A DNA stretch of 64,000 nucleotides from an uncultured Planctomycetales bacterium (GTDB lineage Bacteria > 4484-113). Below are positions 874-63,015 of this stretch, piece after piece. Positions within the stretch are counted from its first letter, which is position 1; the number at the start of each line of letters is the position of its first letter. Made by a program: the position numbers and the translations under genes. The stretch is from positions 3,699 through 67,698 of the forward strand of contig CAZKNJ010000004.1 of NCBI GenBank assembly GCA_964554185.1, written 5' to 3'. The notes under the pieces are model-generated. The model made no database searches. It saw nothing but the letters and a program-made list of their open reading frames with translations, and was not told the DNA's origin.

Positions 874-876
874 CGA

Positions 877-4340: not shown

Positions 4341-4342
4341 TC

Positions 4343-5397: not shown

Positions 5398-5702
5398 TGG
5401 AGCAGATCGTCGCCTACAGCCTGGTCTTATCCGGCATGCTGTTCACCTTCGGGGTGCTGGCGGTATTGGTGCGCCGCAACCCGCTGGTGATGTTCATGGG
5501 TATTGAGCTGATGCTCAACGCGGCGAACCTGGCGTTTGTCGCATTCTCGCGCCATCTCAACCAGCTTGACGGCCAAGTGGTGGCGTTGGTGGTAATGGCG
5601 GTGGCCGCGGCGGAAGTCGCGGTCGGGCTGGCGATAATCGTGGCGGTGTACCGCCGGCGGCGCGATGTTGACGTGGACGAGGTGAACCGACTCAGGGGTT
5701 AG
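5397..5702 (+). CDS. nuoK: NADH-quinone oxidoreductase subunit K
   Basis: 101 aa, three TM helices, [18 protein letters not shown] signature region of NuoK/ND4L; GTG start overlapping nuoJ stop. Confidence 0.88.
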
Positions 5703-5708
5703 CGCAAC

Positions 5709-7658: not shown

Positions 7659-7668
7659 CGGAGACATA

Positions 7669-37178: not shown

Positions 37179-37289
37179 GCGGTCGGTTGGTTGTGTTTAG
37201 AGACTACCGGGGCGCTGAGAAGTGGCCTGCGTGGTTGTGAAAGAGATTACTAGCCAACTGCAACATCGATTATTCCGGAGGACGTGAAA

Positions 37290-38540
37290 ATGGCTGAAGA
37301 ACTAAACCCGCGCCTGATGGCGCAGAAGCAGCTTGACGTTGCGGCCGAGCTGCTGGAATTGGACCGCGCCCAGCACAAGCGGCTGCGAGAGCCGCAGGTC
37401 GTCCTGGAAGTGTCGGTGCCGGTGAAGCTCGACGACGGACGGGTGGAGGTGTTCAAGGGCTGGCGCTCGCAGCACAACAACTTCCGCGGCCCCACCAAGG
37501 GCGGCGTGCGCTTTCACCCCGACACCTGCTACGACGAGGTGGTAGCGCTGTCTATGTGGATGACCTGGAAGTGCGCGCTGCTCAACCTGCCGTTCGGCGG
37601 CGGCAAAGGCGGCGTGCGCTGTAATCCTGCGGAGATGAGCATCGGGGAGATGGAGCGGCTTACGCGGCGTTACACTTTCATGATCAGCCCGATAATCGGG
37701 CCCGAGCGCGACATCCCCGCACCTGACGTCTACACCAATTCCCAGACAATGGCGTGGATGATGGACACCTACAGCATTCTGAAGGGCTACACCATTCCCA
37801 GCGTCGTGACCGGCAAGCCGCTGGACCTCGGCGGAAGCCAGGGACGCGTGGAAGCCACCGGACGCGGCTGCGTCATCTGCGTCCGCGAGGCGCTGAAGCA
37901 CCTGGGCATTGATCCGGCGACGACCACCGCAGCGGTTCAGGGCTATGGCAACGTCGGCTCCAACGCAGCGGTTCTGCTGGAGGAAATGGGCGTGAAGGTG
38001 GTGGCCGCGTCGGATGTGTTCGGTGCGATTCACTCCCCCGACGGGTTGGACACTCGCAAGCTCTGCGACCACGTGACCAAAACCGGCTCAGTAGTGAATT
38101 TCCCCGGCTCCTCTCCCATTTCGGCGGATGAGCTAATCGAAATGGAGGTGGATATCCTCGTTCCCGCTGCGTTGGAGAACGTCATCACCTCTAAGAACGT
38201 GGGCAAAATCAAAGCTAAGATTGTGTCCGAGGGCGCCAACGGCCCAACGACGCCAATGGCTGACAAGGTGCTGCACGAGAACGGCGTGTTCGTCGTCCCC
38301 GACATTCTGGCGAATGCGGGCGGCGTCACTGTCTCGTACTTCGAGTGGGTGCAGGACCTGTACCACTTCCAGTGGGATGAGGACCGCGTGAACAAGGAGC
38401 TGGAGAAGATGATGGTGAAGGCGTTCGCCGAAGTGCTGGCCGTCGCCCAGGAGAAGCGGGTGTGCAACCGCACCGCGGCTTACCTGCTGTCGGTTGCCCG
38501 GGTGGCACGTGCCGGCGCCGAACGCGGCATCTTCCCGTAA
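37290..38540 (+). CDS. gdh: glutamate dehydrogenase (small hexameric Glu/Leu/Phe/Val dehydrogenase family)
   Basis: KGGVRFHP..LSMWMTWKCALLNLPFGGGKGG catalytic Lys region; Rossmann GYGNVG; 416 aa. Confidence 0.85.
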   Translation: MAEELNPRLMAQKQLDVAAELLELDRAQHKRLREPQVVLEVSVPVKLDDGRVEVFKGWRSQHNNFRGPTKGGVRFHPDTCYDEVVALSMWMTWKCALLNLPFGGGKGGVRCNPAEMSIGEMERLTRRYTFMISPIIGPERDIPAPDVYTNSQTMAWMMDTYSILKGYTIPSVVTGKPLDLGGSQGRVEATGRGCVICVREALKHLGIDPATTTAAVQGYGNVGSNAAVLLEEMGVKVVAASDVFGAIHSPDGLDTRKLCDHVTKTGSVVNFPGSSPISADELIEMEVDILVPAALENVITSKNVGKIKAKIVSEGANGPTTPMADKVLHENGVFVVPDILANAGGVTVSYFEWVQDLYHFQWDEDRVNKELEKMMVKAFAEVLAVAQEKRVCNRTAAYLLSVARVARAGAERGIFP

Positions 38541-38773: not shown

Positions 38774-40996
38774 ATGTCTGAAGGGCGCAAGAACAAAAGG
38801 AAGCCGAATGGCGCTCCCGAAAAGGAACTGGAGAAGATCCACCGGGAGTATGCCGCCGTGTCGTCCATCTTCGAGATGGCGGGCGCGCTCATCATCGTGC
38901 TGGATACGCTGGGGCGGATAGTGCTGTTCAACCGCGCCTGCGAAGAGGTTACGGGATACCCGGCTGAGGAAGTTGAGGGGAAGGCGTTCTTTGACCTATT
39001 CATCCTGCCTGACGAGCTGAAGGGCGTCAAGGCTGTCTTCAAAGACCTGAAGTCGGACAAGTTCCCCAGCAAGTACGAGAACCACTGGCGCACAAAGAAT
39101 GGAGACCGTCGGCTGATCTCCTGGTCCAACACTGTGATGCACAGTGAATCCGGCGAGGTGGAGTTCATCGTCAGCATCGGCCTGGACATCACCGAGCGGA
39201 TGCAGGTGGAAGAGGAGCTTCAGCGCAAGTCCCACGACTTGGGCGAGCGGGTGAAGGAGCTTAACTGCCTGTATGGCATTTCGCGCCTGCGGGAAGACCC
39301 TAAGCTGTCGGTGGCCGAAATGCTGCAGAGGATTGTGGAACTGATACCGCCCGCATGGCACTATCCCGGGATTACCTGCGCCCGCATAAGTGTGAGCGGG
39401 AGCATTTTCACCACTGGTAATTTTGCAGAGACAAGCTGGCGGCAGCACAGCAAGGTTCAGGTTTACGGCGAGGACATCGGCACCGTTGAGGTTTTCTACC
39501 TGGAGGGAATGCCTGAACTGGACGAAGGGCCCTTCCTTGCTGAGGAGAGGAAGCTCATTGATGCCATCGCCGAGCGCATCGGACGCATTATTGAGCACCG
39601 CCAAACTGAAGCGCGTGCGAGGGAATACCAGGACGAGCTGCGCAGCCTGGCCTCGGAAATGGCGCTGGTGGAGGAGCGCGAGCGCCGGCGCATTGCGGTG
39701 GAGCTGCACGACCATGTGGGGCACGCGCTCGCCATCTCCAAGTTCAAGCTAGAGGATCTCCGTTCCACTACGGACGCGGAGGAGCTTGAACAGGCGATTG
39801 AGCTGATTGACGAGACCATCAAAAGCACACGGTCGCTCACATTTGAGCTGAGCCCGCCGGTGCTGCACGAGTTGGGGTTCATTGCCGCGTTGGATTGGCT
39901 CTGCAAGCAGATGCGCGACAAGCACGGGCTGAACGTTGAGTTCCGCGACGACGAAGTTCCCAAGCGGCTGGCCGAAGATACGCGCATGCTGGTTTTTCAG
40001 GCGATGCGCGAGCTGTTGGTGAACGCGGTCAAGCATTCGCGCGCGTCCCAAGTCCTGGTTCAGACCAAGAAGCTGAATGGCGATATCCAGGTTACGGTGG
40101 AGGATAACGGCGTTGGGTTTGACCCGTCGGCGGTGGCGGCAAGACGCGGAAAAGAAGGCGGCTTCGGGTTGTTCAACATGAGCGAGCGCCTGGGCTACTT
40201 GGGCGGACGGCTGGAAGTAGACTCCGCACCCGGCCGGGGCACGATTATTACGCTGATAGCTCCCCTCAAGGCTGACGGCGAATCACAGGCTCCACCTGCG
40301 CCAGCCATCGACCGGACGCGCGGCCTGAGGATCAAAGCCGACCGGCGCATCAAGATTCTACTGGCGGAGGACCACCAGATAACCCGCGAGGGCCTGCGCG
40401 CACTGCTGGAGAGGGAGCCGGACCTCAGTGTGGTCGCTGAGGCGGACAACGGTGCCAAGGCGGTCGAACTGGCGCTGGAGCATGCGCCGGATATAGTGAT
40501 AATGGACATCGCGATGCCAGAGATGAACGGGATCGAGGCCACGAAGCGCATAGTTGCGGAGCTACCTCAGACGAAGGTGGTCGCGCTGTCCATGCACGCG
40601 GACAAACACTACGTACTGGAGATGCTGCGGGCGGGCGCGTCAGGCTATTTGCTTAAGGACTGCGCGCAGGTGGACCTTGCCCGGGCGGTGCGAACGGTGG
40701 ACGCGAACCTGACCTTCCTCAGCCCGGAGATTGCCGACACGGTGGTGGAGGAGTATGCGCGCTACCAGTCGCATCAAGAACAGGCTGTGGCGTCGGTGCT
40801 CACTCCGCGCGAGCGTGAAGTGCTGGCGCTGCTGGCGGAAGGCAGCAACACCAAAGAAATCGGCCTGAAACTGGGCGTGAGCGTCAAGACGGTGGAAACC
40901 CATCGCCAGCACGTAATGGACAAACTCAACTTGCACAGCGTTGCAGAGCTTACGAAGTACGCTATTAAGGAAGGATTGATAGGCATAGAGGACTGA
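38774..40996 (+). CDS. hybrid sensor histidine kinase fused to a complete NarL/FixJ-type response regulator (PAS - GAF-like - HisKA_3 - HATPase_c - REC - LuxR HTH)
   Basis: PAS (LFNRACEEVTGYPAEEVEGKAFFDL), H-box LHDHVGHAL (HisKA_3), G-box GGFGLFNMSERL..GRGTI, REC (KILLAEDHQ...DIVIMDIAMPEMNG), LuxR HTH (LTPREREVLALLAEGSNTKEIG). Confidence 0.8.
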   Translation: MSEGRKNKRKPNGAPEKELEKIHREYAAVSSIFEMAGALIIVLDTLGRIVLFNRACEEVTGYPAEEVEGKAFFDLFILPDELKGVKAVFKDLKSDKFPSKYENHWRTKNGDRRLISWSNTVMHSESGEVEFIVSIGLDITERMQVEEELQRKSHDLGERVKELNCLYGISRLREDPKLSVAEMLQRIVELIPPAWHYPGITCARISVSGSIFTTGNFAETSWRQHSKVQVYGEDIGTVEVFYLEGMPELDEGPFLAEERKLIDAIAERIGRIIEHRQTEARAREYQDELRSLASEMALVEERERRRIAVELHDHVGHALAISKFKLEDLRSTTDAEELEQAIELIDETIKSTRSLTFELSPPVLHELGFIAALDWLCKQMRDKHGLNVEFRDDEVPKRLAEDTRMLVFQAMRELLVNAVKHSRASQVLVQTKKLNGDIQVTVEDNGVGFDPSAVAARRGKEGGFGLFNMSERLGYLGGRLEVDSAPGRGTIITLIAPLKADGESQAPPAPAIDRTRGLRIKADRRIKILLAEDHQITREGLRALLEREPDLSVVAEADNGAKAVELALEHAPDIVIMDIAMPEMNGIEATKRIVAELPQTKVVALSMHADKHYVLEMLRAGASGYLLKDCAQVDLARAVRTVDANLTFLSPEIADTVVEEYARYQSHQEQAVASVLTPREREVLALLAEGSNTKEIGLKLGVSVKTVETHRQHVMDKLNLHSVAELTKYAIKEGLIGIED

Positions 40997-41107: not shown

Positions 41108-41800
41108 ATGCGGACGGGCGGTGTTGGCCGCCGAATCCCCTGTGTGATGTGTATCGGCATACTTCTGGTTGACGACCACCGGATCTTCCGTGAGGGCTTG
41201 CGCGTCCTGCTGGAGAAGCAGCCGGGAATCCGCGTACTAGCAGAGGCCGAGGACGGCCGGCAGGCGGTGCAGCTTGCGCGTGAACACCATCCGGACGTCG
41301 TCATCATGGACGTTTCCATGCCGCAATGCAACGGCATCGAGGCGACCAAGCTGATAATGGCTGAAGCTCCGGGCACCAAGGTACTGGCGCTTTCCATCCA
41401 CAGCGATGGCAACTTCGTTATCGAGATGCTGCGGGCGGGCGCCGCCGGCTACCTGCTCAAGGACTGCTGCCACCAGGACCTCGCACGTGCCATCCGCACG
41501 GTGGACGCGAACGTCGTCTTTCTTAGCCCGTGTATCGCCCTGACCGCTGCCAAGGAGTACATCCGGCACAACTCCGGACCCAACGGCGACCGCAAGGTCA
41601 ACCTCACCGGCCGCGAAAAAGAGGTTCTACTGCGGCTGGCGGGGGGAAAGACAACCAAGGAAATCGCCCAGGAGTTTGGCGTCAGCGCGAAGACGATTGA
41701 AACCTACCGCTGGCGGCTGCGCCAGAAGCTCAACATGCGCAGCATGGCCGAGCTCACAAAATACGCCATTCGGCAAGGGCTGGTGAGCGTTGATTCGTAG
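41108..41800 (+). CDS. NarL/FixJ-family response regulator (REC + LuxR HTH), paralog of the kinase C-terminus
   Basis: RBS GAGGA 7 nt upstream; REC (ILLVDDHRIF..DVVIMDVSMPQCNG) and HTH (LTGREKEVLLRLAGGKTTKEIA); ~55% identical to residues ~525-740 of the upstream kinase. Confidence 0.8.
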   Translation: MRTGGVGRRIPCVMCIGILLVDDHRIFREGLRVLLEKQPGIRVLAEAEDGRQAVQLAREHHPDVVIMDVSMPQCNGIEATKLIMAEAPGTKVLALSIHSDGNFVIEMLRAGAAGYLLKDCCHQDLARAIRTVDANVVFLSPCIALTAAKEYIRHNSGPNGDRKVNLTGREKEVLLRLAGGKTTKEIAQEFGVSAKTIETYRWRLRQKLNMRSMAELTKYAIRQGLVSVDS

Positions 41801-42457: not shown

Positions 42458-43288
42458 ATGGATCCTGAACAGGCACTGACTCCGCAAACCCGCAATGGCG
42501 AGATGGACGGACTCATCTCGCTGCTGGAGCGCATCCAGGCCAGGTACAACTACCTGCCGGAGGAGGCTCTGCGCGAAGTATCCGAGACCACCGGCCGCTC
42601 CCTCGTGGACATCTACGGCGTGGCAACCTTCTATAGGGCGTTCAGCCTGAAGCCGCGCGGCAAACACCTCGTGTCCGTCTGTCTGGGCACGGCGTGCCAT
42701 GTGCGCGGCGGCCCGGCGATTGCCGAGGAATTTGAGCGCCGGCTGGGGATACGGGCTGGCGAAACCACCGACGACCGCGAATTCACGCTGGAAACGGTGA
42801 ACTGCCTGGGAGCCTGCGCACTCGGGCCGGTTGCGGTGGTCAACGGCAAGTACTTCTCGAAGGTGCGCAGGTCGGAAGTCAAGGAGATCATCCGGCAAGT
42901 CCTATCGGGCGCGGAAGAGATTGATCTTGCCACCGACCAGCGTGTCATTCCAGTGGAAGTTAACTGCCCCCGCTGCAACCACAGCCTAATGGACTCCAGC
43001 CACCTCGTTGACGGCCTGCCGTCCATCCGGGTCAGCATCACTTTCGGGCGGGTTCACGGGTGGATGTGTTTGTCCGCGCTCTATGGAAGCTACAACGTCG
43101 TGTCGGAGTACCCGTTGCCGGCGAATGCGGTTATTCACTTCTTCTGCCCCCATTGCCACGAGGAGCTGTCGGGGCCGGTCGAATGCCCGGAGTGCGGCGC
43201 GCCGATGGTGCGGATGATTGTCCGCGGGGGCGGCGTCTTACAGGTATGTTCGCGTAAGGACTGCAAGGCCCACACGCTCGACATTTGA
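42458..43288 (+). CDS. NuoE/HoxE-like thioredoxin-fold [2Fe-2S] protein with C-terminal zinc-ribbon-like extension
   Basis: CLGTACHVRG...CLGACALGP (2Fe-2S ligands of the 24 kDa subunit family); extra ~120 aa with CPRC..x..FFCPHCHEEL..CPECGAPM. Confidence 0.75.
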   Translation: MDPEQALTPQTRNGEMDGLISLLERIQARYNYLPEEALREVSETTGRSLVDIYGVATFYRAFSLKPRGKHLVSVCLGTACHVRGGPAIAEEFERRLGIRAGETTDDREFTLETVNCLGACALGPVAVVNGKYFSKVRRSEVKEIIRQVLSGAEEIDLATDQRVIPVEVNCPRCNHSLMDSSHLVDGLPSIRVSITFGRVHGWMCLSALYGSYNVVSEYPLPANAVIHFFCPHCHEELSGPVECPECGAPMVRMIVRGGGVLQVCSRKDCKAHTLDI

Positions 43289-43338: not shown

Positions 43339-46300
43339 ATGCAACGAGTCTCAACACTTGCTGATTTCTCGAACCTCCGGCGGATGATTCTCGGAGAACC
43401 ACAGAAGGATATGCCATGTCTCGTCGTATGCGCGGGCACTGGTGGCCAGGCCAGCGGCTCCAACGACATCATCCGTATCATCAAGCGCCAGATCATTGAG
43501 AAGAGCTACCAGGAGCGCATGTCGCTGCGCATCACCGGCTGCCAGGGCTTCTGCGAGATGGACCCGTTCATTCTCGTGGAGCCGGCGCTCAACCTCTACC
43601 CGCTCTTGAAAATGGAGGATGTGCCGCGCGTGATTGACGCAGTGGCGCAGGGGCGCGTGCTGGAGGATCTGCTTTACAAGGGGACTGGCGAGCGGAAATG
43701 CTACCACTGCCAGAACGACATTCCCTTCTTTAAGAAGCAGACGCGCACCATCCTGGGGAAGAACGAGCAAATCGATCCTATCCGCCTGTACGACTACATC
43801 CGGTGCAATGGCTACGCTGCGCTGGAGAAAGTGCTGGAAGACCCCAAGCCGGGGTGGGTCATTGAGGAAGTGAAGCGCTCCGGCCTGCGCGGCCGCGGTG
43901 GCGCCGGATTCCCTACTGGAAAGAAGTGGGAGTTGGCGCGGGCTTCCGGCAACGGCGCGGGCCAGAAATACGTGGTCTGCAACGCGGACGAAGGTGACCC
44001 CGGCGCCTATATGGACCGCAGCCTGCTTGAAGGCAATCCGCACGCCATCATTGAGGGAATGCTCATCGCCGGCATCGCCATCGGCGCGACCAAGGGTTTC
44101 ATCTACGTGCGCAGCGAGTATCCATTAGCCATTAAGCACACGCTCATTGCGTTGCAGCAGGCCGGCGAGATGGGGCTGCTGGGCAAGAACATACTGGGCA
44201 CTGGCATCGATTTCGACATTGAGATCGTGCGCGGCGCCGGCGCGTTTGTCTGCGGAGAGGAAACCGCGCTCATAAGGTCAATTGAAGGACTCATGGGTGA
44301 GCCGCGCCAGCGCCCGCCTTACCCAATAGTGAAGGGCATCTGGGGCCATCCCACCTGCATCAATAACGTTGAGACCCTGGCGAATGTGCCGGTAATAATC
44401 CGTGACGGCGCGGACGAGTACGCCAAAGTCGGCGTGCCGGGCAACACCGGAACCAAGATATTCAGCCTGGTCGGCAAGATACGCAACACCGGCCTGGTGG
44501 AAGTCCCGATGGGAATCACCATCGGCGAAATCGTCTACGACATCGGCGGCGGCCCCGTGGGCGAGGCCAAGATCAAGGCGGTGCAGACCGGCGGGCCCTC
44601 CGGCGGCTGCATCCCCGCGAGCATGTTTGACCTGCCCATTGACTACGACAGCCTGACCAAAGCGGGCTCCATTATGGGCAGCGGCGGCATGATCGTGATG
44701 GACGAGAACACCTGCATGGTGGATGTCGCCAAGTACTTCATGGGCTTCCTGAAAGACGAGTCCTGCGGCAAGTGCTTCACCTGCCGCAAGGGCACGCAGC
44801 GGATGTGGGAGCTGCTGGACGACATCACCAAGGGGCGCGGCACGCTCGCCCACCTAGACTTGCTGGAGGAACTGGCGCTGGTGGTGAAGGACACCACCAT
44901 GTGCGGCCTGGGGCAGTCGGCGCCCAATCCCGTGCTCAGCACTCTCAAGTATTTCCGCGAGGAGTACGAAGAACATATTCTGGAGAAGCGCTGCCGCGCC
45001 TTCGTCTGCAAGGAGCTGGTGGGTGCGCCCTGCCAGACCGCCTGCCCGCTGGGCACCGAGGCCTGGCGCTATGTGGCGCACATCGCCCGGGGCGAATACG
45101 AGGACGCGTACACGGTTATCCGCGAAGCCAACCCCTTCCCCTCGGTGTGCGCCCGCGTGTGCAGCCACCCGTGCGAGAGCCACTGCCGCAGCGGCGTCGT
45201 GGGCACGCGCCCAATCGCCATCCGCGCGCTGAAGCGCTTCATCACCGACCGCATTGACCCGTCGGTGTACACGCCGAAGCGTGACCAGGCCAAGCGCCCG
45301 GAGCGTGTGGCCGTGGTCGGCTCCGGCCCGGCCGGAATGGCAGCCGCGCATTACCTTTCGCTCAAGGGCTATCCGGTGACCGTGTTTGAGGCGCTGCCGG
45401 AGCCGGGCGGGATGCTCATCAGCGGTATCCCCTCCTACCGGCTGCCGCGCGAAACTCTGCGCAAAGAAATCGCCTCGCTAGTGGACGAAAATGTGGCGGT
45501 TGAATGCGGCAAGGCGCTGGGCAAGGACTTCACAGTGGATGGCTTGTTCGGCGACGGCTATAAGGCGGTATTCCTGGCGATGGGCGCCCACAAGAGCCGC
45601 AAGCTCAATGTCGCGGGCGAAGACCTCAAGGGCGTCCATCCGGCGATTGAGTTCCTGAAAGCGTGGAACCTCCGCAGCGAGCAGCTTGCCACCGGCCACG
45701 TGGGCGTCATCGGCGGCGGGGACTCGGCGGTGGATGCTGCGCGCGTCGCGCTGCGCCAGCCCGGCGTGAAGAGCGTGACCATCTTCTACCGGCGCACGCG
45801 CAACGAGATGCCTGCGCTGGCGGAGGAAGTTGATGCGGCGCTGGACGAGGGCATTAAGCTGGAGGCGCTGGTCTCGCCGCTGAAGATACATGCGGAGATT
45901 GAAGAAGGCGTGCCCGGCGAGGAGCTGGAGACGCCGCTGAAGATGACCTCCAAGGAGGCCCGCGTCACCGGTGTGGACTTCATCCGCAACGAGCTGGGCG
46001 CGGTGGACGCCAGCGGCCGGCGCAATCCAGTGCCGCTCAAGGGCAGCGAGTTCACCGCCAAACTGGACACTCTTATCGTCACCATCGGCGACGTTCCCGA
46101 TATTGATTACGTGGCGGACATGGGCCTGGCCGTCAGCAAATGGGGCACTCTCGTCTGCGACGAAGACACTCTGCTGACTAGCCGCGAAGGCGTTTTCGCT
46201 GGCGGCGATGTCGTCACCGGTCCAAACACTGTGGTGGAAGCGATTGCAGCCGGCAAGAAAGCCGCCGTGATGATCCACCGCTTCCTGCGCAGCGAGCCGC

Positions 46301-46575
46301 TGAAGCAGCCCGCACAGGTGAAGCTGCCTGAGGTGCTGGTGGAGCCCGTGATGCTGGACGAGGAGGAGCTGGAGACCGCCGAGCGGGTGGAACCGCCGCG
46401 CATCGCGCCGGAACGCCGCGCGGCCGGCTTTGACGAGGTTGAGCTCACGCTCACGGTGGAGGACGCAACGCGCGAAGCCCGTCGCTGCTTGCGCTGCGAC
46501 CTGGAGTTCACCCAGCGGCGGTACGACGATGATGAGCTGGAAGCTCCCATCCCCGTGGAGAAGGTGGCCCGCTGA
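43339..46575 (+). CDS. NuoF-like NAD(P)H-binding FMN/4Fe-4S flavoprotein with N-terminal NuoE-like domain and C-terminal GltD-like FAD/NAD(P)-binding domain (triple fusion)
   Basis: N-term Cys pairs (PCLVVCAG, GCQGFCEM); NuoF core (GRGGAGFPTGKKW, VCGEETALIRSIEG, ESCGKCFTCRKGT); 2x Cys clusters (CQTACPLG.., CARVCSHPCESHC); Rossmann VAVVGSGPAGMAAAHYL and second GVIGGGDSAVD. Confidence 0.8.
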   Translation: MQRVSTLADFSNLRRMILGEPQKDMPCLVVCAGTGGQASGSNDIIRIIKRQIIEKSYQERMSLRITGCQGFCEMDPFILVEPALNLYPLLKMEDVPRVIDAVAQGRVLEDLLYKGTGERKCYHCQNDIPFFKKQTRTILGKNEQIDPIRLYDYIRCNGYAALEKVLEDPKPGWVIEEVKRSGLRGRGGAGFPTGKKWELARASGNGAGQKYVVCNADEGDPGAYMDRSLLEGNPHAIIEGMLIAGIAIGATKGFIYVRSEYPLAIKHTLIALQQAGEMGLLGKNILGTGIDFDIEIVRGAGAFVCGEETALIRSIEGLMGEPRQRPPYPIVKGIWGHPTCINNVETLANVPVIIRDGADEYAKVGVPGNTGTKIFSLVGKIRNTGLVEVPMGITIGEIVYDIGGGPVGEAKIKAVQTGGPSGGCIPASMFDLPIDYDSLTKAGSIMGSGGMIVMDENTCMVDVAKYFMGFLKDESCGKCFTCRKGTQRMWELLDDITKGRGTLAHLDLLEELALVVKDTTMCGLGQSAPNPVLSTLKYFREEYEEHILEKRCRAFVCKELVGAPCQTACPLGTEAWRYVAHIARGEYEDAYTVIREANPFPSVCARVCSHPCESHCRSGVVGTRPIAIRALKRFITDRIDPSVYTPKRDQAKRPERVAVVGSGPAGMAAAHYLSLKGYPVTVFEALPEPGGMLISGIPSYRLPRETLRKEIASLVDENVAVECGKALGKDFTVDGLFGDGYKAVFLAMGAHKSRKLNVAGEDLKGVHPAIEFLKAWNLRSEQLATGHVGVIGGGDSAVDAARVALRQPGVKSVTIFYRRTRNEMPALAEEVDAALDEGIKLEALVSPLKIHAEIEEGVPGEELETPLKMTSKEARVTGVDFIRNELGAVDASGRRNPVPLKGSEFTAKLDTLIVTIGDVPDIDYVADMGLAVSKWGTLVCDEDTLLTSREGVFAGGDVVTGPNTVVEAIAAGKKAAVMIHRFLRSEPLKQPAQVKLPEVLVEPVMLDEEELETAERVEPPRIAPERRAAGFDEVELTLTVEDATREARRCLRCDLEFTQRRYDDDELEAPIPVEKVAR

Positions 46576-47270: not shown

Positions 47271-48959
47271 ATGATGTGGACGACCTTTTCCAGAGTTAAC
47301 TCTTCGGCTGCAACCCTGACCAAGAACCGCACCGAGGGCTCGGTCACGCCGAGTTCCGGCATGTGCGTAACTTGCGTGGATGGCTGCATCGGTATGTGCG
47401 AAATCGGCAAGTCCGCCTACCGAGGGCACGAGGTCATCTACCCGCAGCCGTTCGGCGTGATAACGACCGCCGCGGAAAAAACCTACCCGGTGGACTACTC
47501 CCATTTCAACATCATGGGCACCGCCGTCGGGGCGCACGGCATTGAGGCCGATTCGGACAAGGCCGTGTTCCCGGCGGTGGACCTCACCGTAACCTTCGGC
47601 CACGACAACGGGCTGAAGTTCAAGCTGCCCATAATGATCCCCGGCATCGGCTCCACCAACATCGCCAAGAACAACTGGGAGGGCCTGGCCATCGGCACCG
47701 CGCTGGCGGGCACCGGCCTGACCATCGGCGAGAACGTGGTGGGCATGGATCCCGAATCGACCATCAAGAACGGCCGGGTGGTGGATACGGTGGACCTCAA
47801 GCGCCGGGTGAAGCTGTTTACCGACCACCAGCGCGACGGCTGGGGCGCCATCATCGTCCAGTCCAACATCGAGGACACGCGGCTGGGGGTGCAGGAGTAC
47901 GCCATCGGCGAGCTGGGCGTGGAATGTGTGGAGCTTAAGTGGGGGCAGGGCGCCAAGGACATCGGCGGCGAGGTCAAGATCCGCGAGCTGAAGAAGGCCC
48001 AGCTGCTCTACGAGCGCGGCTATGTAGTGCTGCCAAACCCGACCGACCCCAATGTGATAAAGGCCTTTGAGCGCGGCGCGTTCAAGGAGTTTGAGCGCCA
48101 CTCGCGCGTGGGCATGGTCACGGAAGAGGGCTTCGCCCAGCGGGTGGACGAGCTGCGCAAAGCCGGCGCCAAGTACATCTTCCTCAAGACCGGCGCCTAC
48201 CGGCCGGCCGACCTCGCGCGCGCGGTGAAGTACGCGTCCAAGTACCGCCTTGACCTGCTCACCGTGGACGGCGCGGGCGGCGGCACCGGCATGAGCCCCT
48301 GGCGCATGATGAACGAGTGGGGCGTCCCGCCGGTGGAACTGCACTCGCTGCTCTACGAATACTGCAAGGAGCTGCACGACCGCGGCGAGCACGTTCCCGC
48401 CGTCACCGTCGCCGGCGGCTTCACCTTTGAGGACCAGATGTTCAAAGGCCTGGCGCTGTGCGCGCCGTTCGCCAAGCTAATCGGCATGGCGCGCAGCCCC
48501 ATCGCCGCCGCGATGGTAGGCAAGACCATCGGCCGCACGATTGACCAGAACCAGGTGCCGGTGTACGTTGAGCGGTTCGGCAACACGAAGGACGAGATAT
48601 TCGTCACCGCGGCCGACCTGCGCCACGAGCTGGGCGACGACGAGTTTGAGCGCATCCCGACCGGCGCGCTGGGCCTCTACACCTACTACGAGCGGCTCGC
48701 GCAGGGCCTGCGCCAGTTGATGGCGGGCAACCGCAAGTTCGCCCTGAAGTACATTGAGCGCGACGACATCGCGGCGCTGACGCACGAGGCGGCCGACATC
48801 AGCGGTATCACCTACATCATGGACGTGGACAAGGCCGAGGCAGCGAAGATACTCGGCGCCAACGGCAAGGGCTCAAAGAAGGCTGCGGCGTCGGCGAAGC
48901 CCGCCGCCAAGAACGACGGCAAGCGCACACCGGCTTCCAAGTCCGGCGCGAAGAAGTAA
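47271..48959 (+). CDS. archaeal-type GltB: glutamate synthase FMN-binding (domain 2) family protein with N-terminal Cys cluster
   Basis: CVTCVDGCIGMCEIG N-terminal cluster; TIM-barrel FMN domain signatures incl. DGAGGGTGMSPW (cf. GGTGASP of GltS); C-terminal Lys/Ala-rich tail. Confidence 0.65.
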   Translation: MMWTTFSRVNSSAATLTKNRTEGSVTPSSGMCVTCVDGCIGMCEIGKSAYRGHEVIYPQPFGVITTAAEKTYPVDYSHFNIMGTAVGAHGIEADSDKAVFPAVDLTVTFGHDNGLKFKLPIMIPGIGSTNIAKNNWEGLAIGTALAGTGLTIGENVVGMDPESTIKNGRVVDTVDLKRRVKLFTDHQRDGWGAIIVQSNIEDTRLGVQEYAIGELGVECVELKWGQGAKDIGGEVKIRELKKAQLLYERGYVVLPNPTDPNVIKAFERGAFKEFERHSRVGMVTEEGFAQRVDELRKAGAKYIFLKTGAYRPADLARAVKYASKYRLDLLTVDGAGGGTGMSPWRMMNEWGVPPVELHSLLYEYCKELHDRGEHVPAVTVAGGFTFEDQMFKGLALCAPFAKLIGMARSPIAAAMVGKTIGRTIDQNQVPVYVERFGNTKDEIFVTAADLRHELGDDEFERIPTGALGLYTYYERLAQGLRQLMAGNRKFALKYIERDDIAALTHEAADISGITYIMDVDKAEAAKILGANGKGSKKAAASAKPAAKNDGKRTPASKSGAKK

Positions 48960-48975
48960 CGATCAACCCTCTCGC

Positions 48976-49066
48976 TGCGCCCGCCGGGGCACCAGGCTTC
49001 GGTGGGCGCTGCGGGCGTTTTCCCTTATTCCCTGCAATCACGGGCTCCTGCGAAGGAGCCCGTTTG
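48976..49066 (+). terminator. tandem rho-independent terminator hairpins after the GltB-like gene
   Basis: cgcccgc...gcgggcgTTTTccc (48976-49024) and gggctcct-gcga-aggagccc-gTTTg (49042-49066). Confidence 0.45.
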
Positions 49067-49100
49067 CCCGACCGGGCGAGCAAGGGTCTGGCGACTCCGC

Positions 49101-49475
49101 CTATCCCAGCGCTTTTTTCAGCGCATCCAGCATCTTGGCGGGGTCGACAAGCTTCACCTTTTTCGCGGCGGTCCCAAGCAGCTTCTTGGCGTCCTCGTGC
49201 AGCTCTTTGGGAACCGCCAACAGTACCGGTACGTTGTAGTTGAAGCAGCTCTGCAGGATGTCCTCGGTGCTGGCCTCCCAGCGCGGCGGCGCCACTACTT
49301 TGTGCAGGTAGCCGATAACCGCATGCACTTTGTCCTTGCCGCTGAAGAGGCGCACGTTCTTGCCGTGGCCGTCGTAGCCGTTGCTCACCGGCAGCGTGTC
49401 ATGCCCCCGGGCTACGAGGCTGGTGAGCCACACCGGGTCTGTCCCTTCGAAGTAACCGACTACTTTACGATTCAT
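49101..49475 (-). CDS. hypothetical protein
   Basis: Start at ATG 49475 (MNRKVVGYFEG..), 124 aa; no family recognised. Confidence 0.4.
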   Translation of the reverse strand: MNRKVVGYFEGTDPVWLTSLVARGHDTLPVSNGYDGHGKNVRLFSGKDKVHAVIGYLHKVVAPPRWEASTEDILQSCFNYNVPVLLAVPKELHEDAKKLLGTAAKKVKLVDPAKMLDALKKALG

Positions 49476-49692
49476 CTTGTCCTCCTCTTTCTGCCGCGCC
49501 GGGCGCGTCATTTCCGCCGGGCGCTAGGCGTTTGCCTGCTATTCTAGCATATGGGGCGGCCGCGCTGTAAGGAAAACACTTACAGGGCAGGCTTACACAC
49601 TGAAGCAATCGGGCTTCCTGGCGAGACGGGCGGGCTAGGCAGCGCTGGCGGGAAAGGCTCCCTCGGGTATAATAGCGTAGAGGTGAAATACG

Positions 49693-49905
49693 GTGCCCAA
49701 ACAGCGCAAAGTTGAAATCGTGCTCCGGGACGGCAAGCCCTCCGCCGTCATCCTGGACATCGCGGAATACGAGAGGCTGCTGGAGAGAGCCGAGGATTTG
49801 TACGACCTCAAGATGCTGGCGGAAATGAGAAAGAGCGCGCTGAGATTCCGCACACTGGAGGACTTCCTGCAGGAGCACGAATCCGGTGTATCAAGTTCTG
49901 CTTGA
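49693..49905 (+). CDS. Phd/YefM-family antitoxin
   Basis: GTG start after RBS AGGTGA and TATAAT (49666-49671); KVEIVLRDGKPSAVILDIAEYERLLERAEDLYDLK typical of Phd/YefM. Confidence 0.65.
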   Translation: MPKQRKVEIVLRDGKPSAVILDIAEYERLLERAEDLYDLKMLAEMRKSALRFRTLEDFLQEHESGVSSSA

Positions 49906-50140
49906 ACGGGCTGCCGAAAAGGACCTGAAACGGCTGCCGCCAGCCGACTTCAACCGCGTCATCACCGCAATCAAGGCTCTCGCAAGCGTTCCCCGCCCAA
50001 CCGGTACTCGCAAACTGAAGGGCTCCAAAGGTGATTATCGCTTGCGTGTTGGGGACCTGCGGGTGATATACGAGGTTGACGATCGCGAGCGCGCCGTCCG
50101 TGTGATGCGCGTACGTCCTCGGGACGAAGCCTACAAGTAA
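49886..50140 (+). CDS. RelE/ParE-family toxin
   Basis: 84 aa, overlaps antitoxin by 20 nt; LKGSKGDYRLRVGDLRVIYEVDDRERAVRVMRVRPR matches RelE/ParE C-terminal pattern. Confidence 0.65.
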   Translation: MYQVLLERAAEKDLKRLPPADFNRVITAIKALASVPRPTGTRKLKGSKGDYRLRVGDLRVIYEVDDRERAVRVMRVRPRDEAYK

Positions 50141-50257: not shown

Positions 50258-51616
50258 TTAGACGACGCCCTGATCCATCATCGCGTTGGCGACCTTTAGG
50301 AAGCCGGCGATGTTGGCGCCGTTGACATAGTTGCCCGGCGTGCCATAGGCCTCGGCGGTCTCAAAGCACGCCTTGTGGATTGAAATCATGATGTTGTGGA
50401 GCTTCTCGTCCACTTCGTTGCGCGTCCAGGAAGTGTGCCCCGCGTTCTGCGCCATCTCCAGGCCGCTGGTGGCCACGCCGCCGGCGTTGGCCGCCTTGCC
50501 CGGGCCGTAGAGGATCTTCTTCGCGACGAAGTGCTCAACGCCTTCCGGCACCGTGGGCATATTGGCGCCCTCGCTGACGACAAACACGCCGTTCTTGACC
50601 AGCGCTTTGGCGTCGTCCACCGAAACCTCGTTCTGGGTGGCGCTGGGGAAGGCGCACTGCGCACCCTCAACCTGCCACACGCCGGTGCCTTCGTGGAACT
50701 CGCACTTGTACTTCGCGGCATACTCCTTGATGCGGCCGCGCTTGACGTTCTTCAGCTCCATCACGTACGCGAGCTTCTCCTCGTTGATACCATCGCGGTC
50801 AACAATGAAGCCAGCGGAGTCGGAGAGGGTGATGCATTTCCCGCCGAGGTGGCTGACCTTCTCCACGGTGTACTGCGCGACGTTGCCGGAGCCGGAGACC
50901 AGGCAGGTCTTGCCTTTGACGCTGTCGCCGCGGGTGCGCAGCATTTCCTCCGCGAAGTACACCGCGCCGTAGCCGGTGGCCTCCGGGCGGATGAGGCTGC
51001 CGCCCCACGCCAGGCCCTTGCCGGTCAACACGCCCTCAAAGCGGTTGACGATGCGCTTGTACTGGCCGAACAGGAAGCCGATCTCGCGCCCGCCCACGCC
51101 GATATCGCCGGCGGGGATGTCGGTGCGGCCGCCGATGTGGCGGAAGAGCTCCGTCATGAAGCTCTGGCAGAAGCGCATAACCTCTCTATCGGACTTGCCC
51201 TTGGGGTCGAAGTCGGAGCCGCCCTTGCCGCCGCCGATGGGGATGGTGGTCAAAGCGTTCTTGAAAACCTGCTCAAATCCCAGGAACTTGAGAATGCCCA
51301 GATTTACTGTAGGGTGGAAACGCAATCCGCCCTTGTACGGGCCGATCGCGCTGTTGAATTCCACGCGGAAACCGCGGTTAACCTGAACACGCCCCTCATC
51401 GTCCGTCCAGGGCACACGGAACAGAATCACGCGCTCCGGCTCCACGATGCGCTCGAGAATCCGCGCTTCTTTGTATTCCGGGTGCCGTTCCAGCGCCAAC
51501 TCCAGCGATTCCACGACCTCGCGTACGGCCTGGTGGAACTCCTTTTCGCCGGGATTCTTGGCGATTAAGCCCTCCATGAAGGAGTCAACCCACTGTGACA
51601 TTCGGAAGACCTCCAA
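50258..51616 (-). CDS. gdhA: NADP-specific glutamate dehydrogenase (large ~450-aa GdhA type)
   Basis: IPIGGGKGGSDFDPKGKSD catalytic region, Rossmann GSGNVAQY; 452 aa (alt start at MSQW, 51601). Confidence 0.85.
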   Translation of the reverse strand: MEVFRMSQWVDSFMEGLIAKNPGEKEFHQAVREVVESLELALERHPEYKEARILERIVEPERVILFRVPWTDDEGRVQVNRGFRVEFNSAIGPYKGGLRFHPTVNLGILKFLGFEQVFKNALTTIPIGGGKGGSDFDPKGKSDREVMRFCQSFMTELFRHIGGRTDIPAGDIGVGGREIGFLFGQYKRIVNRFEGVLTGKGLAWGGSLIRPEATGYGAVYFAEEMLRTRGDSVKGKTCLVSGSGNVAQYTVEKVSHLGGKCITLSDSAGFIVDRDGINEEKLAYVMELKNVKRGRIKEYAAKYKCEFHEGTGVWQVEGAQCAFPSATQNEVSVDDAKALVKNGVFVVSEGANMPTVPEGVEHFVAKKILYGPGKAANAGGVATSGLEMAQNAGHTSWTRNEVDEKLHNIMISIHKACFETAEAYGTPGNYVNGANIAGFLKVANAMMDQGVV

Positions 51617-54047: not shown

Positions 54048-57000
54048 CTAGCCGCTTGAAGTACTGCTTTGATTGCCTGCGGCCGCGATTGTCGCCGCGA
54101 GGTATGCTTCCACGTATTGGGAAATGTTACTTATCTTCGCCAGTTGCGTTTCCAGCGAGACAAACTGGTTGCGCAGCCGGGTCTCGTAGGTTGACAGGCT
54201 CTCCTCGGCGCGGCTGATGGAGTCCTGATAGTTTAGTATCTGCTTATCAAACGCGCCGCCGGTGCGCAGCCGCTCAAATATGGCGCCTTGAATGCCCGTC
54301 TGGTTCTGCACATACTTGCGCGTCCGCGCGGCGGTGCCCCCGTACACAAACGGGTCAATGCCCAGGTAGGAGCCCGGCTGGACGCCCAGCCGGGTGAGCA
54401 GCGAATCACCGCCGTAGGATAGGTCGGAGAAAGAAATTTCCGCCGAGCGGTCAGTGCGGGTGGAGGTGAAGTTCAGCAAGTAGTTGGCGTCGTAGTACGG
54501 CAGGATGCTGTTACCCAGACCGGCTTCCGCCAGCGCCGAGCTGATGCGGTTGAGCACAGTAGATGCGTTGTAGGCTCCAGGAGTGAAGCGCACTTCCGCA
54601 GTAGTGCCGCTGCCGTCGCCGACGGTGAAGCGCAGGCTGGTGCCCACGGAGATGCCGCCCGAGAGGTCGGCGCTGCCGGTGGCGGTGACGCGGCTCTGCA
54701 CCGCGGTGGCGAAGAGCTTGTACACATCGTCGGCATTGTCGCTCAGAGCGCTCAGCAACACCTGATTGCCGCGCAGGCTCGCTTCCAGTATTCCGCGGTC
54801 GGTGGTCGTCGACAGCAACATGCCTCTGTTCTCGCGGGCCTCGTCCGCACTCGCGCCAACGCTGGAGGTGGTCATTCCAAGCTGGGCGATTGAGCGGTAG
54901 GCCCCCTCGTTGCTCACGAGGCCGAGTATCATCTCGCGGATCTTCCGCGCGATAGCGCGCATGCCGGAGTCGCGCGAGACGAAGTCGCGCTGGCGGAGCT
55001 CGTTGCGCCGCGTGTTGTACGCGTCTATCTCGTCCAGCGACATCGTCGCCAGCGCGTCGTCGTCCAGCGGCACCAGCTCTTCGCGCTCGCTTTTCGTCAG
55101 CGGCGGCTGGTTCACCAGGTCTATCGCCGTGTTGTACTCCACTATGAAGTCCAGCAGCGCGGTAATGGCCTTCTCGGTGTCCGCCGCCACGTCAACCGTG
55201 ACGGGGCTGGAGGTGGCTCCCTGGAGGTTGAAGGTCACACCACCTACGATGTCGCTTACCGTGTTGGTCGCGCGGGTGTATTCCACGTCGTCAACTGTGA
55301 ACACCGCGTCCTGGCGCTCGCTGCCGACATCCCATGAATACGCGGTGTAGGGCAGCAGGCGCATCGCGGCGAGGAAGCTGCTCGTGTCGGTCGCAGAGCC
55401 AACCTTGATCTGTGTGGCCGTCGGGTTCTTGCTGAGATCCTGGCGCAAGACGAACTTGTCGGCAGCCTCGTCGTATGACGCAATGACGCCGGCCTGCGAG
55501 CGGTTGATGCGGTCAATAACATTGTTGAGGCTGTCCACTCCGGCGTCCACATAGATGGCAACCCCGTTGATGGTGAAGACGCCGGAAGTGGGGGTGACGG
55601 TCAGGCCGCCTTCGGAGAGGGGCACGGTGGGGCTGGCTTTGCGGTCGGACTGCCCGGCGATGGCGTATCCGCCCGCGTCGTCCGTCACCCCGAGTATGGT
55701 CCACAGATTGCTGGTGTTGCCCGCGCCGCCGAAAGTGAAGCCGGAGGAGCTGTTGTCGTTGCGCTCCATGACGAAGCGGTTCAGCGCGCCGTCGTAGCGG
55801 ATAGTCACACCCGCGCCGCTGGAGTTAATCTGCGCCATCACCTCGTGCACCGTGGTGGCAGTGACATCACCCACGGTGATGGACACGCCGTTAATCACCA
55901 GAGTGCCGTCGGTATGATTGCCGGGGCTGGCGGAGGAGTTCTGCGGAGTGAGGGCGAAGCCCGCAGTGGCTAGCGATGCGTATATGTCTATCGGGGGAAC
56001 CTTGGTGGTTGGCGAGGATGCGATGTTAGCGGCACCGAAGCGCACGGAACTCATCGCAGGGCTGGTGTTGAGCACGTCGTACTTGCCCGTGATGGCGACA
56101 GCGACGCCGTTCCCCGGTGACAGCGCGTTGACCGTAGCGCCGATAATGAGGCGCGTAGTGTTTGTATTGTCCACACCGGTCGCCGCCGTCCTGACGGTTG
56201 CGCCACCAGTAGTCTGCTGGGTCGCCGTCATCGTGTAGTGGGCGTTACTGGAAGACGCCGCAAACGTGTTGGTGCCGTCGTCCGTTGAGCTCTGGAGGTC
56301 CGTCGCGCCGATGGAAAACAGCGTATCCAGTATTCCGCCCAGGCCGTCAATCGCGCGGACGTCGCGGCCGCCGGCGTTCGCCTGTATCTCCAGCCGGTAG
56401 CTGCCAGACACGGAGACCAGCTGCGCCGTGACCGTCGGCACCTGCGCATTTATTGCGTCCACGAGGTCCTGCACCGACGAATCCGCGCTCAGCCCCTGGA
56501 TGAGGATGAACTCCTGCGAGCCGGCGCCGTCGGGGTCTATCGCCAACTGGTTAAACACGGTGATGCCGTAGGAGCCCAGAGTGTTGCTGGGGTCAAGGAC
56601 AGTGGTTGAGCCGTAGAGCCGCCCAGCCTTGCCCTGGGTGCCCGAAATGAAGTACTTGCCGGTGACCTCCACCGCGAAGGGGCCGGTGGTAATCACCTGG
56701 GCGGTCTGGGCCGCGCCTGCGCGCGTGGTGATGAAGCTCCCGGCGGCGAAGCTGGTGGTGTTGGGCCCACCGTCCACGAAGCTCAGGCTGATGGCGGTCT
56801 GCGAAGCTCCGCCAGCGCTGTCGGTGAGCACCAGCCGTCCGCTGTCCAGCGTCAGCGTGGCGTTGGTGTACGCGCCGTTGACGCCCGCGAGGAACTGCGC
56901 CAGCGTGGTGCCGGTGACGCCGTAGGTGAAATCGTAGGTGCCGGTGCCGCCGTTGATCAGCGAGCCGTCCGGGTTGGTGCCGGTGATGCGGATGATGTCG

Positions 57001-57923: not shown

Positions 57924-57943
57924 AGGAGCCACCTCCTAGATAT

Positions 57944-62874: not shown

Positions 62875-63015
62875 TCCCCTGAGTGGCGGCTATTATACCA
62901 GATGGGGGGATAATCGCGCAGCAAATGCAAGCGGCCCGCGGCCTATCCCATATGGGAATGCCACCATACGGTGACAGTGCGGCCGACGGGCCTATCCGGG
63001 AGGGATTGTACAGCG

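Follow-up and report, generated by a model that had tools for sequence, protein, structure and literature searches.

A NuoF-GltD fusion with an NADPH-FAD module at the position of the ferredoxin domain: candidate core of a Bfu-type enzyme complex in uncultured bacteria

An invariant BfuBC core, in which the C-terminal B3/B4 domain of BfuB passes low-potential electrons to ferredoxin, is what currently defines the Bfu (HydABC-like) enzymes. In these enzymes, NAD(H) binds at flavin mononucleotide (FMN), and the B1-FMN-C1 "flavobicluster" is the bifurcation site; a mobile domain at the C-terminus of BfuC moves C1 toward B3/B4 and ferredoxin, and BfuA supplies mid-potential electrons from a third substrate (PMC9304861, PMC11829005, PMC12018979, PMC10482914). 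For archaeal clusters of group F hybrid [FeFe]/[NiFe] hydrogenases, a HydB joined to a GltA domain has been described once, as a model of a protein that was never purified (Greening et al. 2024, Cell; PMC11216029). We analyzed a stretch of 64,000 nucleotides from an uncultured Planctomycetales bacterium (GenBank assembly GCA_964554185.1, contig CAZKNJ010000004.1, positions 3,699 to 67,698; the window), in which a single open reading frame (ORF), here called the fusion, combines a HydB/BfuB-type NuoF with an NfnL/GltD-like module (Table 1). The family to which it belongs keeps the other hallmarks of the Bfu core, one of them (the N-terminal metal site) with less certainty, and carries an NADPH-flavin adenine dinucleotide (FAD) module exactly at the place of the ferredoxin domain. 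In a literature search, the bacterial module with a GltB-like subunit was not described, and only the archaeal HydB-GltA model was found. The Bfu survey of Schut et al. (2022) selected BfuB by its ferredoxin-type domain (IPR017896) and probably missed such proteins, because the fusion lacks that domain.

Alignments of homologues begin at Met1 of the fusion protein, and at least 120 database proteins share the whole architecture, nearly all of them about 1060 amino acids long (range 1025-1081). One of these is an identical copy, and the others are 66-82% identical. Such recurrence argues against a chance product or a mis-assembly, and, judged from these comparisons, the fusion is a real protein and a typical member of a large family. 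Its relatives are named only "FAD-dependent oxidoreductase", "NADH-quinone oxidoreductase subunit F", or "hydrogenase" in the source. Pfam matches comprised Complex1_51K (residues 178-351, E = 3e-45), SLBB (375-423), and NADH_4Fe-4S (462-546, 7e-33), followed by Fer4_20 (547-639, 3e-23) and Pyr_redox_2 (656-972, 9e-29). Among NCBIfam models, nuoF_fam matched at E = 4e-143 and several GltD/NfnB-type models at 1e-75 to 1e-131. These scans agree with the preliminary description of this DNA, which had proposed a complete NuoF core, two dinucleotide modules (NuoF-type FMN/NADH and GltD-type FAD/NADPH) with Fe-S motifs in one chain, and a C-terminal part of flavin type; both modules were found, and the C-terminal part matches flavin families. 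The strings quoted there were likewise located in the ORF, namely, PCLVVCAG (26-33), GCQGFCEM (67-74), ESCGKCFTCR (474-483), VAVVGSGPAGMAAAHYL (657-673), and GVIGGGDSAVD (789-799), as were GRGGAGFPTG (185), NADEGDPGA (215), and a YRR motif (817) whose role is known from GltD and NfnB. In contrast, the term "triple fusion" was overstated, since HydB normally includes the N-terminal thioredoxin-like domain and a separate gene encodes the actual NuoE homologue (Table 1); moreover, the GltD-like part begins near residue 558 rather than 620. The protein is better described as having two parts, a HydB/BfuB-type NuoF (residues 1-557) and a permuted NfnL/GltD module (558-1078).

The first of these parts was compared with solved structures over residues ~25-565, and the best matches were HydB/BfuB chains. 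The NiFe-HydB chain 7t2r_B ranked first (E = 1e-193), and further top matches were HydB 7q4v_B, chain 9mqx_B, NfnB 9n5u_B, chain 9bov_B, and, from the Stn complex of S. ovata, the BfuB-type chain 8oh5_B. E values for 7t2r_B, 7q4v_B, and 9n5u_B lay between 1e-184 and 1e-193, compared with ~1e-108 for complex-I NuoF, and the bifurcating HydB/NfnB chains reached 537-649 bits, compared with ~365 bits or less for complex-I NuoF. The organism has a separate, conventional NuoF, as its complex-I operon lies in the same window (Table 1), and the identification of the fusion as the NuoF of complex I was rejected because that operon has its own NuoF. The alignments to HydB begin at HydB residue 8, indicating that the N-terminal domain is native to HydB and is not a fused NuoE. 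Consistent with this, residues 28-102 scored 19.0 bits for the Pfam family 2Fe-2S_thioredx (E = 1e-3), below the cut-off of 24.8, and the neighboring NuoE homologue scored 157 bits. The first Cys pair of the fusion is C-x3-C, that of HydB is C-x4-C, and the second Cys of HydB corresponds to Gly36, for which C27 may substitute. When 17 relatives were aligned, C68 and C72 were invariant, C31 was present in 15, and C27 was present in eight, the other nine having Thr or Ile. The metal site of this domain (B5), occupied by Zn in two Nfn-Bfu enzymes of known structure (PMC11829005, PMC12018979), is less certain in the fusion.

The cluster ligands of the NuoF core were also conserved. The four ligands of the B1 [4Fe-4S] cluster (C476, C479, C482, and C522) were invariant in the family alignment. 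In HydB of A. mobile, the "B2" residues are C438, C476/Thr, H525, C531, and C536 (PMC9304861), which together form what is currently taken to be a binding site for Zn (PMC11829005). Alignment to 7t2r_B mapped the equivalents in the fusion to C459, T497, H546, C552, and C557; the Cys and His residues were present in 17/17 close relatives, position 497 was T or S, and the Zn/B2 residues were nearly always kept in distant fusions (36-55% identity). The respiratory NuoF paralog, whose C-terminal part lies at 70-873, served as an internal control: it is 41% identical to the fusion core and does not have the B2 residues (Asp, Tyr, and no Cys at these positions). After residue 557, no Fer4-type Pfam match and no CxxCxxCxxxCP motif of the C-terminal B3/B4 2x[4Fe-4S] domain was found, and the usual position of this domain is filled by Fer4_20/Pyr_redox_2. 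Canonical bifurcation is therefore not to be assumed. The adjacent genes encode a BfuC with the C1 [2Fe-2S] cluster and a BfuA with [2Fe-2S] and [4Fe-4S] clusters. By sequence the fusion departs from the Bfu definition in one defining feature, B3/B4, and agrees with it in the others, with less certainty for the N-terminal metal site.

The second part was closest to the NADPH/FAD module that is inserted in the BfuA subunits of Nfn-Bfu/Stn enzymes (NfnA/StnC), as judged by its scores against solved chains. These were 342 bits for Thermococcus sibiricus NfnA (9n5u_A, E = 7e-101), 332 for C. saccharolyticus NfnA (9bov_A), 288 for S. ovata StnC (8oh5_C), 271 for T. maritima NfnB (4ylf_B), 239 for P. 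furiosus NfnL (5jca_L), 208 for GltD, and 133 for DPD. In a neighbor-joining tree of NfnL modules, the close family formed a clean clade, and the deep branches did not distinguish a single origin of the fusion from multiple origins. The A7 cluster of C. saccharolyticus NfnA is ligated by C108, C147, C151, and K170 (PMC11829005). Alignment to this chain assigned the FAD-proximal cluster of the fusion to C569, C608, C612, and K632, with K632 aligned to the Lys ligand of NfnA (K170) and of StnC. The second cluster comprises C565 and C616 together with C1050 and C1053 in the C-terminal EARRCLRC, the latter two being assigned because they are the only candidates for the two remaining ligands. EARRCLRC reproduces the N-terminal QADRCLSCGNPYCEWKCP (QADRCLSC) of E. 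coli GltD, and its position at the C-terminus indicates that the module is circularly permuted relative to GltD. The alignments of NfnA and StnC likewise end in RCLxCG, the same permutation. All eight ligands were conserved in close and distant fusions except at position 632, where K was invariant in the close family and distant fusions had mostly K and in a few cases E or H. Lys is the state of StnC/NfnA, in which the FAD is a non-bifurcating entry site for NADPH, whereas bifurcating NfnB has Glu (PMC10482914, PMC12018979). The proposal that the chain has an electron-bifurcating or confurcating architecture is therefore upheld in part: the NuoF half is of the bifurcating HydB/BfuB type with a conserved Zn/B2 site, but the B3/B4 domain is missing and the FAD side has the ligand of the non-bifurcating type.

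The gene context of the fusion was compared in 13 independent loci, namely, the window, L001 (Planctomycetales bacterium 4484_113), L003 (a Zixibacteria chromosome), L004 (LCP-89), L006 (a Bacteroidetes metagenome-assembled genome, MAG), L007 (Aminicenantes), L071 (Ignavibacteriaceae), L093 (a Phycisphaerales chromosome), L094 (KSB1), and the metagenome contigs L087, L089, L090, and L091. Two of the 13 loci were reached starting from the GltB-like protein, and the sampling was taxonomically incomplete, so it yields no frequencies. The set of BfuC, fusion, BfuA, and GltB-like genes was found in 13/13 loci, with L007 and L071 being truncated contigs on which part of the set is visible, and the GltB-like gene lay downstream of the fusion in every one. 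In the window, the NuoE-like gene and the fusion are separated by 50 nucleotides, the fusion and BfuA genes overlap by 1 nucleotide, and 18 nucleotides separate BfuA from the GltB-like gene, which is followed by a terminator. From this gene content, the fusion is the apparent core of a conserved, uncharacterized enzyme complex in many uncultured anaerobic bacteria.

The partner subunits depart from their solved counterparts in several respects. In the long BfuC, C75, C80, C116, and C120 are invariant, and a Cys/His-rich extension of ~125 amino acids (residues ~170-276, window 42965-43288) follows, in which C170, C173, C230, C233, C243, C246, C264, and C269 were invariant in 9/9 sequences. The pairs of this extension (CxxC/CxHC/CxxC/Cx4C) resemble a double zinc ribbon, and it was found only in modules with the GltB-like gene. 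The best solved match of the short BfuA was a 247-amino-acid BfuA-like chain, 9mqx_A (E = 9e-35); the motif for a His-ligated cluster was missing. Among its 19 key cluster and tail Cys, 18 were present in 10/10 orthologues and C217 in 9/10, and the tail has seven conserved Cys. Many loci have as their first module gene a small protein with two repeats of C-x2-C-x5-C-x11/12-C-E-E/D-F/Y (2x4 Cys), for which no Pfam or NCBIfam match was found. Its eight Cys were kept in 5/5 orthologues (window, L003, L006, L089, and L091), each directly upstream of the NuoE-like gene. Proteins of 96-97 amino acids hold the same position in L093 and L094, as matched by position and not by alignment, and the protein is missing from L001, L004, L087, and L090. 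Possible roles are those of a sensor or of a dedicated carrier of metal or Fe-S.

The GltB-like protein was 79-91% identical across phyla, compared with ~68% for the fusion. A TIM barrel is predicted, and a motif near its N-terminus, C32-x2-C35-x3-C39-x3-C43, was invariant. Sequence and profile searches of solved structures gave no match to the glutamate synthase GltS and no Protein Data Bank (PDB) sequence match, and the profile alignment to E. coli GltB was weak (17% probability). Within that weak alignment, the protein has TIGENV for NSGEGG, GQGAKDIGGE for AQGAKPGEGG, and GGGTGMSP for GGTGASP, which are the substrate and FMN motifs of GltB, in degenerate form; the canonical [3Fe-4S] Cys of GltB were absent at the aligned position. 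An AlphaFold model from a shallow alignment was poor, with a predicted local distance difference test (pLDDT) score of 47, and in a Foldseek search with this poor model the matches were FMN TIM barrels of a generic kind only, GltS of Synechocystis ranking 44th. Wherever gene domain calls were available for a locus, its module showed no gene for an amidotransferase or a GXGXG domain. Residues ~530-562 (window 48860-48956) form a Lys/Ala/Ser-rich, histone-H1-like tail, and most relatives (527-529 amino acids) are without it. In the Zixibacteria sequence CP070756.1 (L003/L005, 11828-13483), the GltB-like gene is split into ORFs of 439 and 112 amino acids, possibly through a frameshift or sequencing error or as a pseudogene.

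A two-component regulator lay directly upstream of the module in at least eight loci. The pair upstream of the operon in the window may regulate it, as inferred from position. In L003, L089, L091, L093, and L094, the module is preceded by a HisKA kinase and a sigma-54-type (NtrC-type) response regulator, and also by a small protein of ~93-119 amino acids without a Pfam match; in L006, only the C-terminal end of a sigma-54-type activator was read, from raw DNA. No sigma-54 promoter was found upstream of the operon in the window, and L003 has one good match. Glutamate dehydrogenase (GDH; ELFV) genes flank the module in the window (37284-38540, + strand, and 50258-51616, - strand) and adjoin it in L001 (13677-14927) and L087 (7304-8554), in three different arrangements in all. 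The gene gltX lies near the module in the window and L087, and glycine-cleavage genes lie near it in L087 and L004. A PPDK_N-domain protein of the family of phosphoenolpyruvate-utilizing enzymes is encoded directly downstream of the module in two unrelated loci, L091 (12623-15808) and L094 (9726-11882).

Full-length NuoF-GltD fusions were also found outside this module. At 50% identity, the representatives formed about a dozen clusters with 35-48% identity, and the loci of the distant fusions have a normal BfuC of ~160 amino acids. Two of them stand beside the [FeFe]-hydrogenase gene HydA (L012, 1725-3074; L013, 11615-13411) and two beside FdhA-like ORFs that stop at ~380 amino acids (L008, 11588-12736; L009, 11632-12777). 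As a conjecture, these early stops are in-frame UGA codons read as selenocysteine; in L010, an FdhA-like ORF of 511 amino acids lies near a distant fusion. With HydA or FdhA as partners of distant fusions, the exchange of the ferredoxin domain for an NADPH module represents a general BfuB variant that is combined with several catalytic partners. In a Pelobacter MAG (L015, 9497-13577), only the 4Fe-4S region of NuoF is fused to GltD, next to HydA.

Taken together, these data are compatible with a soluble Fe-S flavoenzyme of several subunits that descends from Bfu enzymes (HydABC/NfnABC-Stn) and couples NADH, NADPH, and a third substrate, with the ORF encoding its central flavoprotein; we give this reading about even weight. 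NAD(H) would react at the FMN of the fusion and NADP(H) at its FAD. The last Zn ligand, C557, and the first ligand of the NfnL clusters, C565, are 8 residues apart, and 12 residues separate the corresponding position of HydB (7q4v_B) from the first B3/B4 Cys. From this spacing we infer that the NfnL clusters lie at the position of B3/B4 and link C1 to FAD/NADP(H). The first NfnL cluster would then sit where B3 sits in HydB, and the branch that otherwise runs to ferredoxin is probably taken by NADP(H). The cluster chain of the short BfuA, extended by a further cluster in the tail, may join the B1-FMN-C1 core to a 4-Cys Fe-S/FMN site in the GltB-like subunit, which would perform two-electron chemistry on the third substrate. 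A 2-oxo- or imino-acid is our guess for this substrate, based on family membership and the linkage to GDH. In the complex as a whole, NADP(H) would stand in for ferredoxin in the coupling of NADH and NADPH to the third substrate. A more specific version, which we put forward only tentatively and regard as unlikely, is a ferredoxin-free class of Bfu enzymes in which B1-FMN-C1 splits or merges electron pairs among NAD(H), NADP(H), and the new GltB-like substrate, with NADP(H) on the gated branch. If this were true, the related fusions that have HydA or FdhA as neighbors would be hydrogenases and formate dehydrogenases coupled to NADH and NADPH.

Several points weigh against a coupling complex of this kind. 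Deletion of B3/B4 abolishes bifurcation in HydABC (PMC11829005), and the core of the fusion complex, being without B3/B4, perhaps does not bifurcate at all; nor is there an obvious energetic rationale for passing low-potential electrons to NADP+. The AlphaFold model of the fusion was mediocre (pLDDT 67, predicted template modelling score 0.42), and its Fe-S linker (553-646) was unmodelled. The GltB-like protein is connected to the complex by gene order and co-occurrence only, and it is too divergent for its substrate to be deduced, given the missing PDB match, the poor model, and the 17% profile alignment. Both the fusion family and the complex are known from sequence alone. Bifurcation by the complex is unproven.

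A rival explanation retains ferredoxin. It is possible, although doubtful, that the enzyme is a ferredoxin-dependent Bfu enzyme in which ferredoxin or the small 2x4-Cys protein docks on the NfnL [4Fe-4S] clusters or on the Cys-rich tail of BfuA. NADP(H) would then be an extra entry point for an enzyme that bifurcates or confurcates among NAD(H), the third substrate, and the low-potential carrier. In NfnSL, NfnL reduces ferredoxin via its two [4Fe-4S] clusters (PMC10482914), and for the fused archaeal HydB, Greening et al. (2024) gave "likely ferredoxin" as the predicted partner of its GltA domain (PMC11216029). The retention of the Zn/B2 signature and the N-terminal domain, which are otherwise restricted to bifurcating BfuB, is in line with this explanation, and the conserved 8-Cys protein and the seven extra conserved Cys of BfuA are candidate carriers or docking clusters. 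However, the ferredoxin trap of NfnABC is formed by the C-terminal domains of BfuB and BfuC and the thioredoxin domain (PMC11829005), and the first of these is absent from the fusion. The Lys-ligated cluster belongs to the inward-feeding, non-bifurcating type of StnC/NfnA, and some loci (L001, L004, L087, and L090) lack the small protein.

The association of a GltD module with a member of PF01645 raises the question of a plain glutamate synthase. In a non-bifurcating, dual-donor enzyme, the GltD module and the 562-amino-acid GltB-like protein would form a GltS-type alpha-beta pair for the reductive amination of 2-oxoglutarate, and the NuoE, NuoF, and HoxU parts would merely add an entry for NADH, giving an NADH- and NADPH-dependent enzyme. 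We consider this improbable. The degenerate GltB motifs (TIGENV, GQGAKDIGGE, and GGGTGMSP), the GDH genes adjoining the module in the window, L001, and L087 with gltX near, and the NtrC-type sigma-54 activators upstream in five loci (L003, L089, L091, L093, and L094) speak for such an enzyme; however, the GDH linkage is restricted to one lineage, modules with gene domain calls showed neither a glutamine amidotransferase gene nor a GXGXG gene, the canonical [3Fe-4S] motif is absent, and the GltB-like protein is undetectable by sequence against solved GltS. In addition, a simple diaphorase role leaves the retained B2 and N-terminal features of bifurcating BfuB unexplained, and near-identical modules across phyla with their own two-component systems resemble a transferable accessory module more than they do a housekeeping glutamate synthase. 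Lastly, a three-subunit Stn/Nfn-like transhydrogenase (BfuC, BfuB-NfnL, and BfuA) acting on NADH and NADPH only, with the GltB-like protein as a co-transcribed separate enzyme, seems very improbable, because, although the three subunits hold all cofactors for electron transfer from NADH to NADPH and the nearest solved relatives of both fusion halves are transhydrogenase subunits, the GltB-like gene, the best conserved of the set, follows BfuA after 18-30 nucleotides in all loci, the Cys-rich tail of BfuA and the invariant 4-Cys motif fit an inter-subunit electron path, and a plain transhydrogenase without ferredoxin or a third substrate needs no BfuA chain.

The features of the window are listed in Table 1. 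Downstream of the terminator, an ORF at 49002-49547 (+ strand) was rejected as a gene; it is Arg-rich, had no matches, and is antisense to a plausible ORF of 136 amino acids (49101-49511, - strand) without a family match. A Phd/YefM-type antitoxin gene (49693-49905, + strand) overlapping a ParE-type toxin gene (49886-50140, + strand) lies between the terminator and the second GDH gene. Further downstream, the FliD cap protein (54048-57932, - strand, 1294 amino acids) and flagellin (58033-60753, - strand, 906 amino acids) are unusually large, each having a long central insert between conserved terminal domains. The Rfam small RNA motif DUF3800-IX was detected at 62929-62992 (- strand, 53.6 bits, above the gathering threshold).

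Table 1. Location of the module, its upstream regulators, and the complex-I operon in the window (aa, amino acids).
Feature	Position	Strand	Characteristics
Distal complex-I operon	70-10724	+	NuoF C-terminus 70-873, NuoG 877-3363, NuoL/M/N-type antiporter subunits 5709-10724
PAS-HisKA_3-HATPase-REC-LuxR hybrid	38774-40996	+	Pfam; directly upstream of module
REC-LuxR response regulator	41108-41800	+	Pfam; directly upstream of module
Small protein, first module gene in many loci, 105 aa	42076-42393	+	GGAGGA ribosome-binding site before ATG
Long NuoE/HoxE/BfuC-like subunit, 276 aa	42458-43288	+	2Fe-2S_thioredx, E = 3e-46; C1 [2Fe-2S]
Fusion gene	43339-46575	+	ATG start, 1078 codons open, 1078 aa
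Fusion, N-terminal thioredoxin-like domain, residues 1-145	43339-43773	+	Putative B5 site (C27, C31, C68, C72); aligns with N-termini of solved HydB/NfnB chains
Fusion, NuoF core, residues 146-557	43774-45009	+	FMN/NAD(H) site, SLBB, [4Fe-4S] B1, Zn/B2 site
Fusion, NfnL/GltD-like module, residues 558-1078	45010-46575	+	Two [4Fe-4S], FAD GSGPAG 661, NADP(H) GGGDSA 792, YRR 817
Short NuoG/HoxU/BfuA-like subunit, 225 aa	46575-47252	+	Pfam Fer2_4, Fer4_7; [2Fe-2S], two ferredoxin-type [4Fe-4S], Cys-rich tail
GltB-like FMN protein, presumed catalytic subunit, 562 aa	47271-48959	+	Glu_synthase PF01645, E = 5e-13, 49 bits (cut-off 20.4), residues 282-400 only
Terminator-like hairpin and U-run (GUUUU), operon end	48971-49021	+	RNA fold -38.6 kcal/mol, z = -3.7 against shuffles

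Should the complex be active, it may show that the wiring of the bifurcating core can be switched to a pyridine nucleotide; otherwise, the "bifurcation signature" residues (Zn/B2 and the N-terminal domain) may be no guide to ferredoxin-linked bifurcation. Either outcome would touch the debated Bfu mechanism directly, and the highly conserved GltB-like FMN protein is a new candidate catalytic partner.

Among known systems, NfnSL (NfnAB) has in common with the module the NfnL fold and the FAD and NADPH motifs (4ylf_B and 5jca_L), but the module has no NfnS, and at its proximal cluster Lys stands in place of the Glu of bifurcating NfnL (PMC10482914, PMC12018979). GltBD shares the occurrence of a GltD-type FAD/NADPH/2x[4Fe-4S] module together with a PF01645 FMN protein. 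In the window, however, the GltD module is permuted and Lys-ligated and NuoE-, NuoF-, and NuoG-like parts are added, whereas the FMN protein is without the amidotransferase, the GXGXG domain, and the canonical [3Fe-4S] motif of GltB and is only remotely similar to it. The archaeal group F HydB-GltA/GltD proteins, likened here by description only, embody the same idea of a NuoF-like diaphorase with a glutamate-synthase small-subunit domain (PMC11216029); they are partnered with hydrogenase subunits, and the bacterial family is partnered with the GltB-like FMN protein. In HydABC and NiFe-HydABCSL (7q4v, 7p5h, 8a6t, and 7t2r), HydB subunits are the best sequence matches of fusion residues 28-564, with ~50% identity or more over the whole HydB core, and the likeness spans FMN and B1 as well as the N-terminal domain and the B2 residues. 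Unlike these enzymes, the operon of the window has no hydrogenase subunit, and the fusion has an NADPH/FAD module and no B3/B4. Nfn-Bfu/StnABC (S. ovata 8oh5, C. saccharolyticus 9bov, and Thermococcus sibiricus 9n5u) has the same NuoE-like BfuC, HydB-type BfuB with Zn/B2, and NuoG-like BfuA, and the same permuted NfnL/GltD NADPH-FAD module with the Lys-ligated [4Fe-4S] cluster and terminal RCLxC. There, the NADPH module is inserted in BfuA, whereas in the fusion it stands at the C-terminus of BfuB in place of B3/B4; in the module of the window, BfuA is reduced to 225 amino acids, BfuC has gained a Cys/His-rich domain of ~125 amino acids, and a GltB-like FMN subunit is added.

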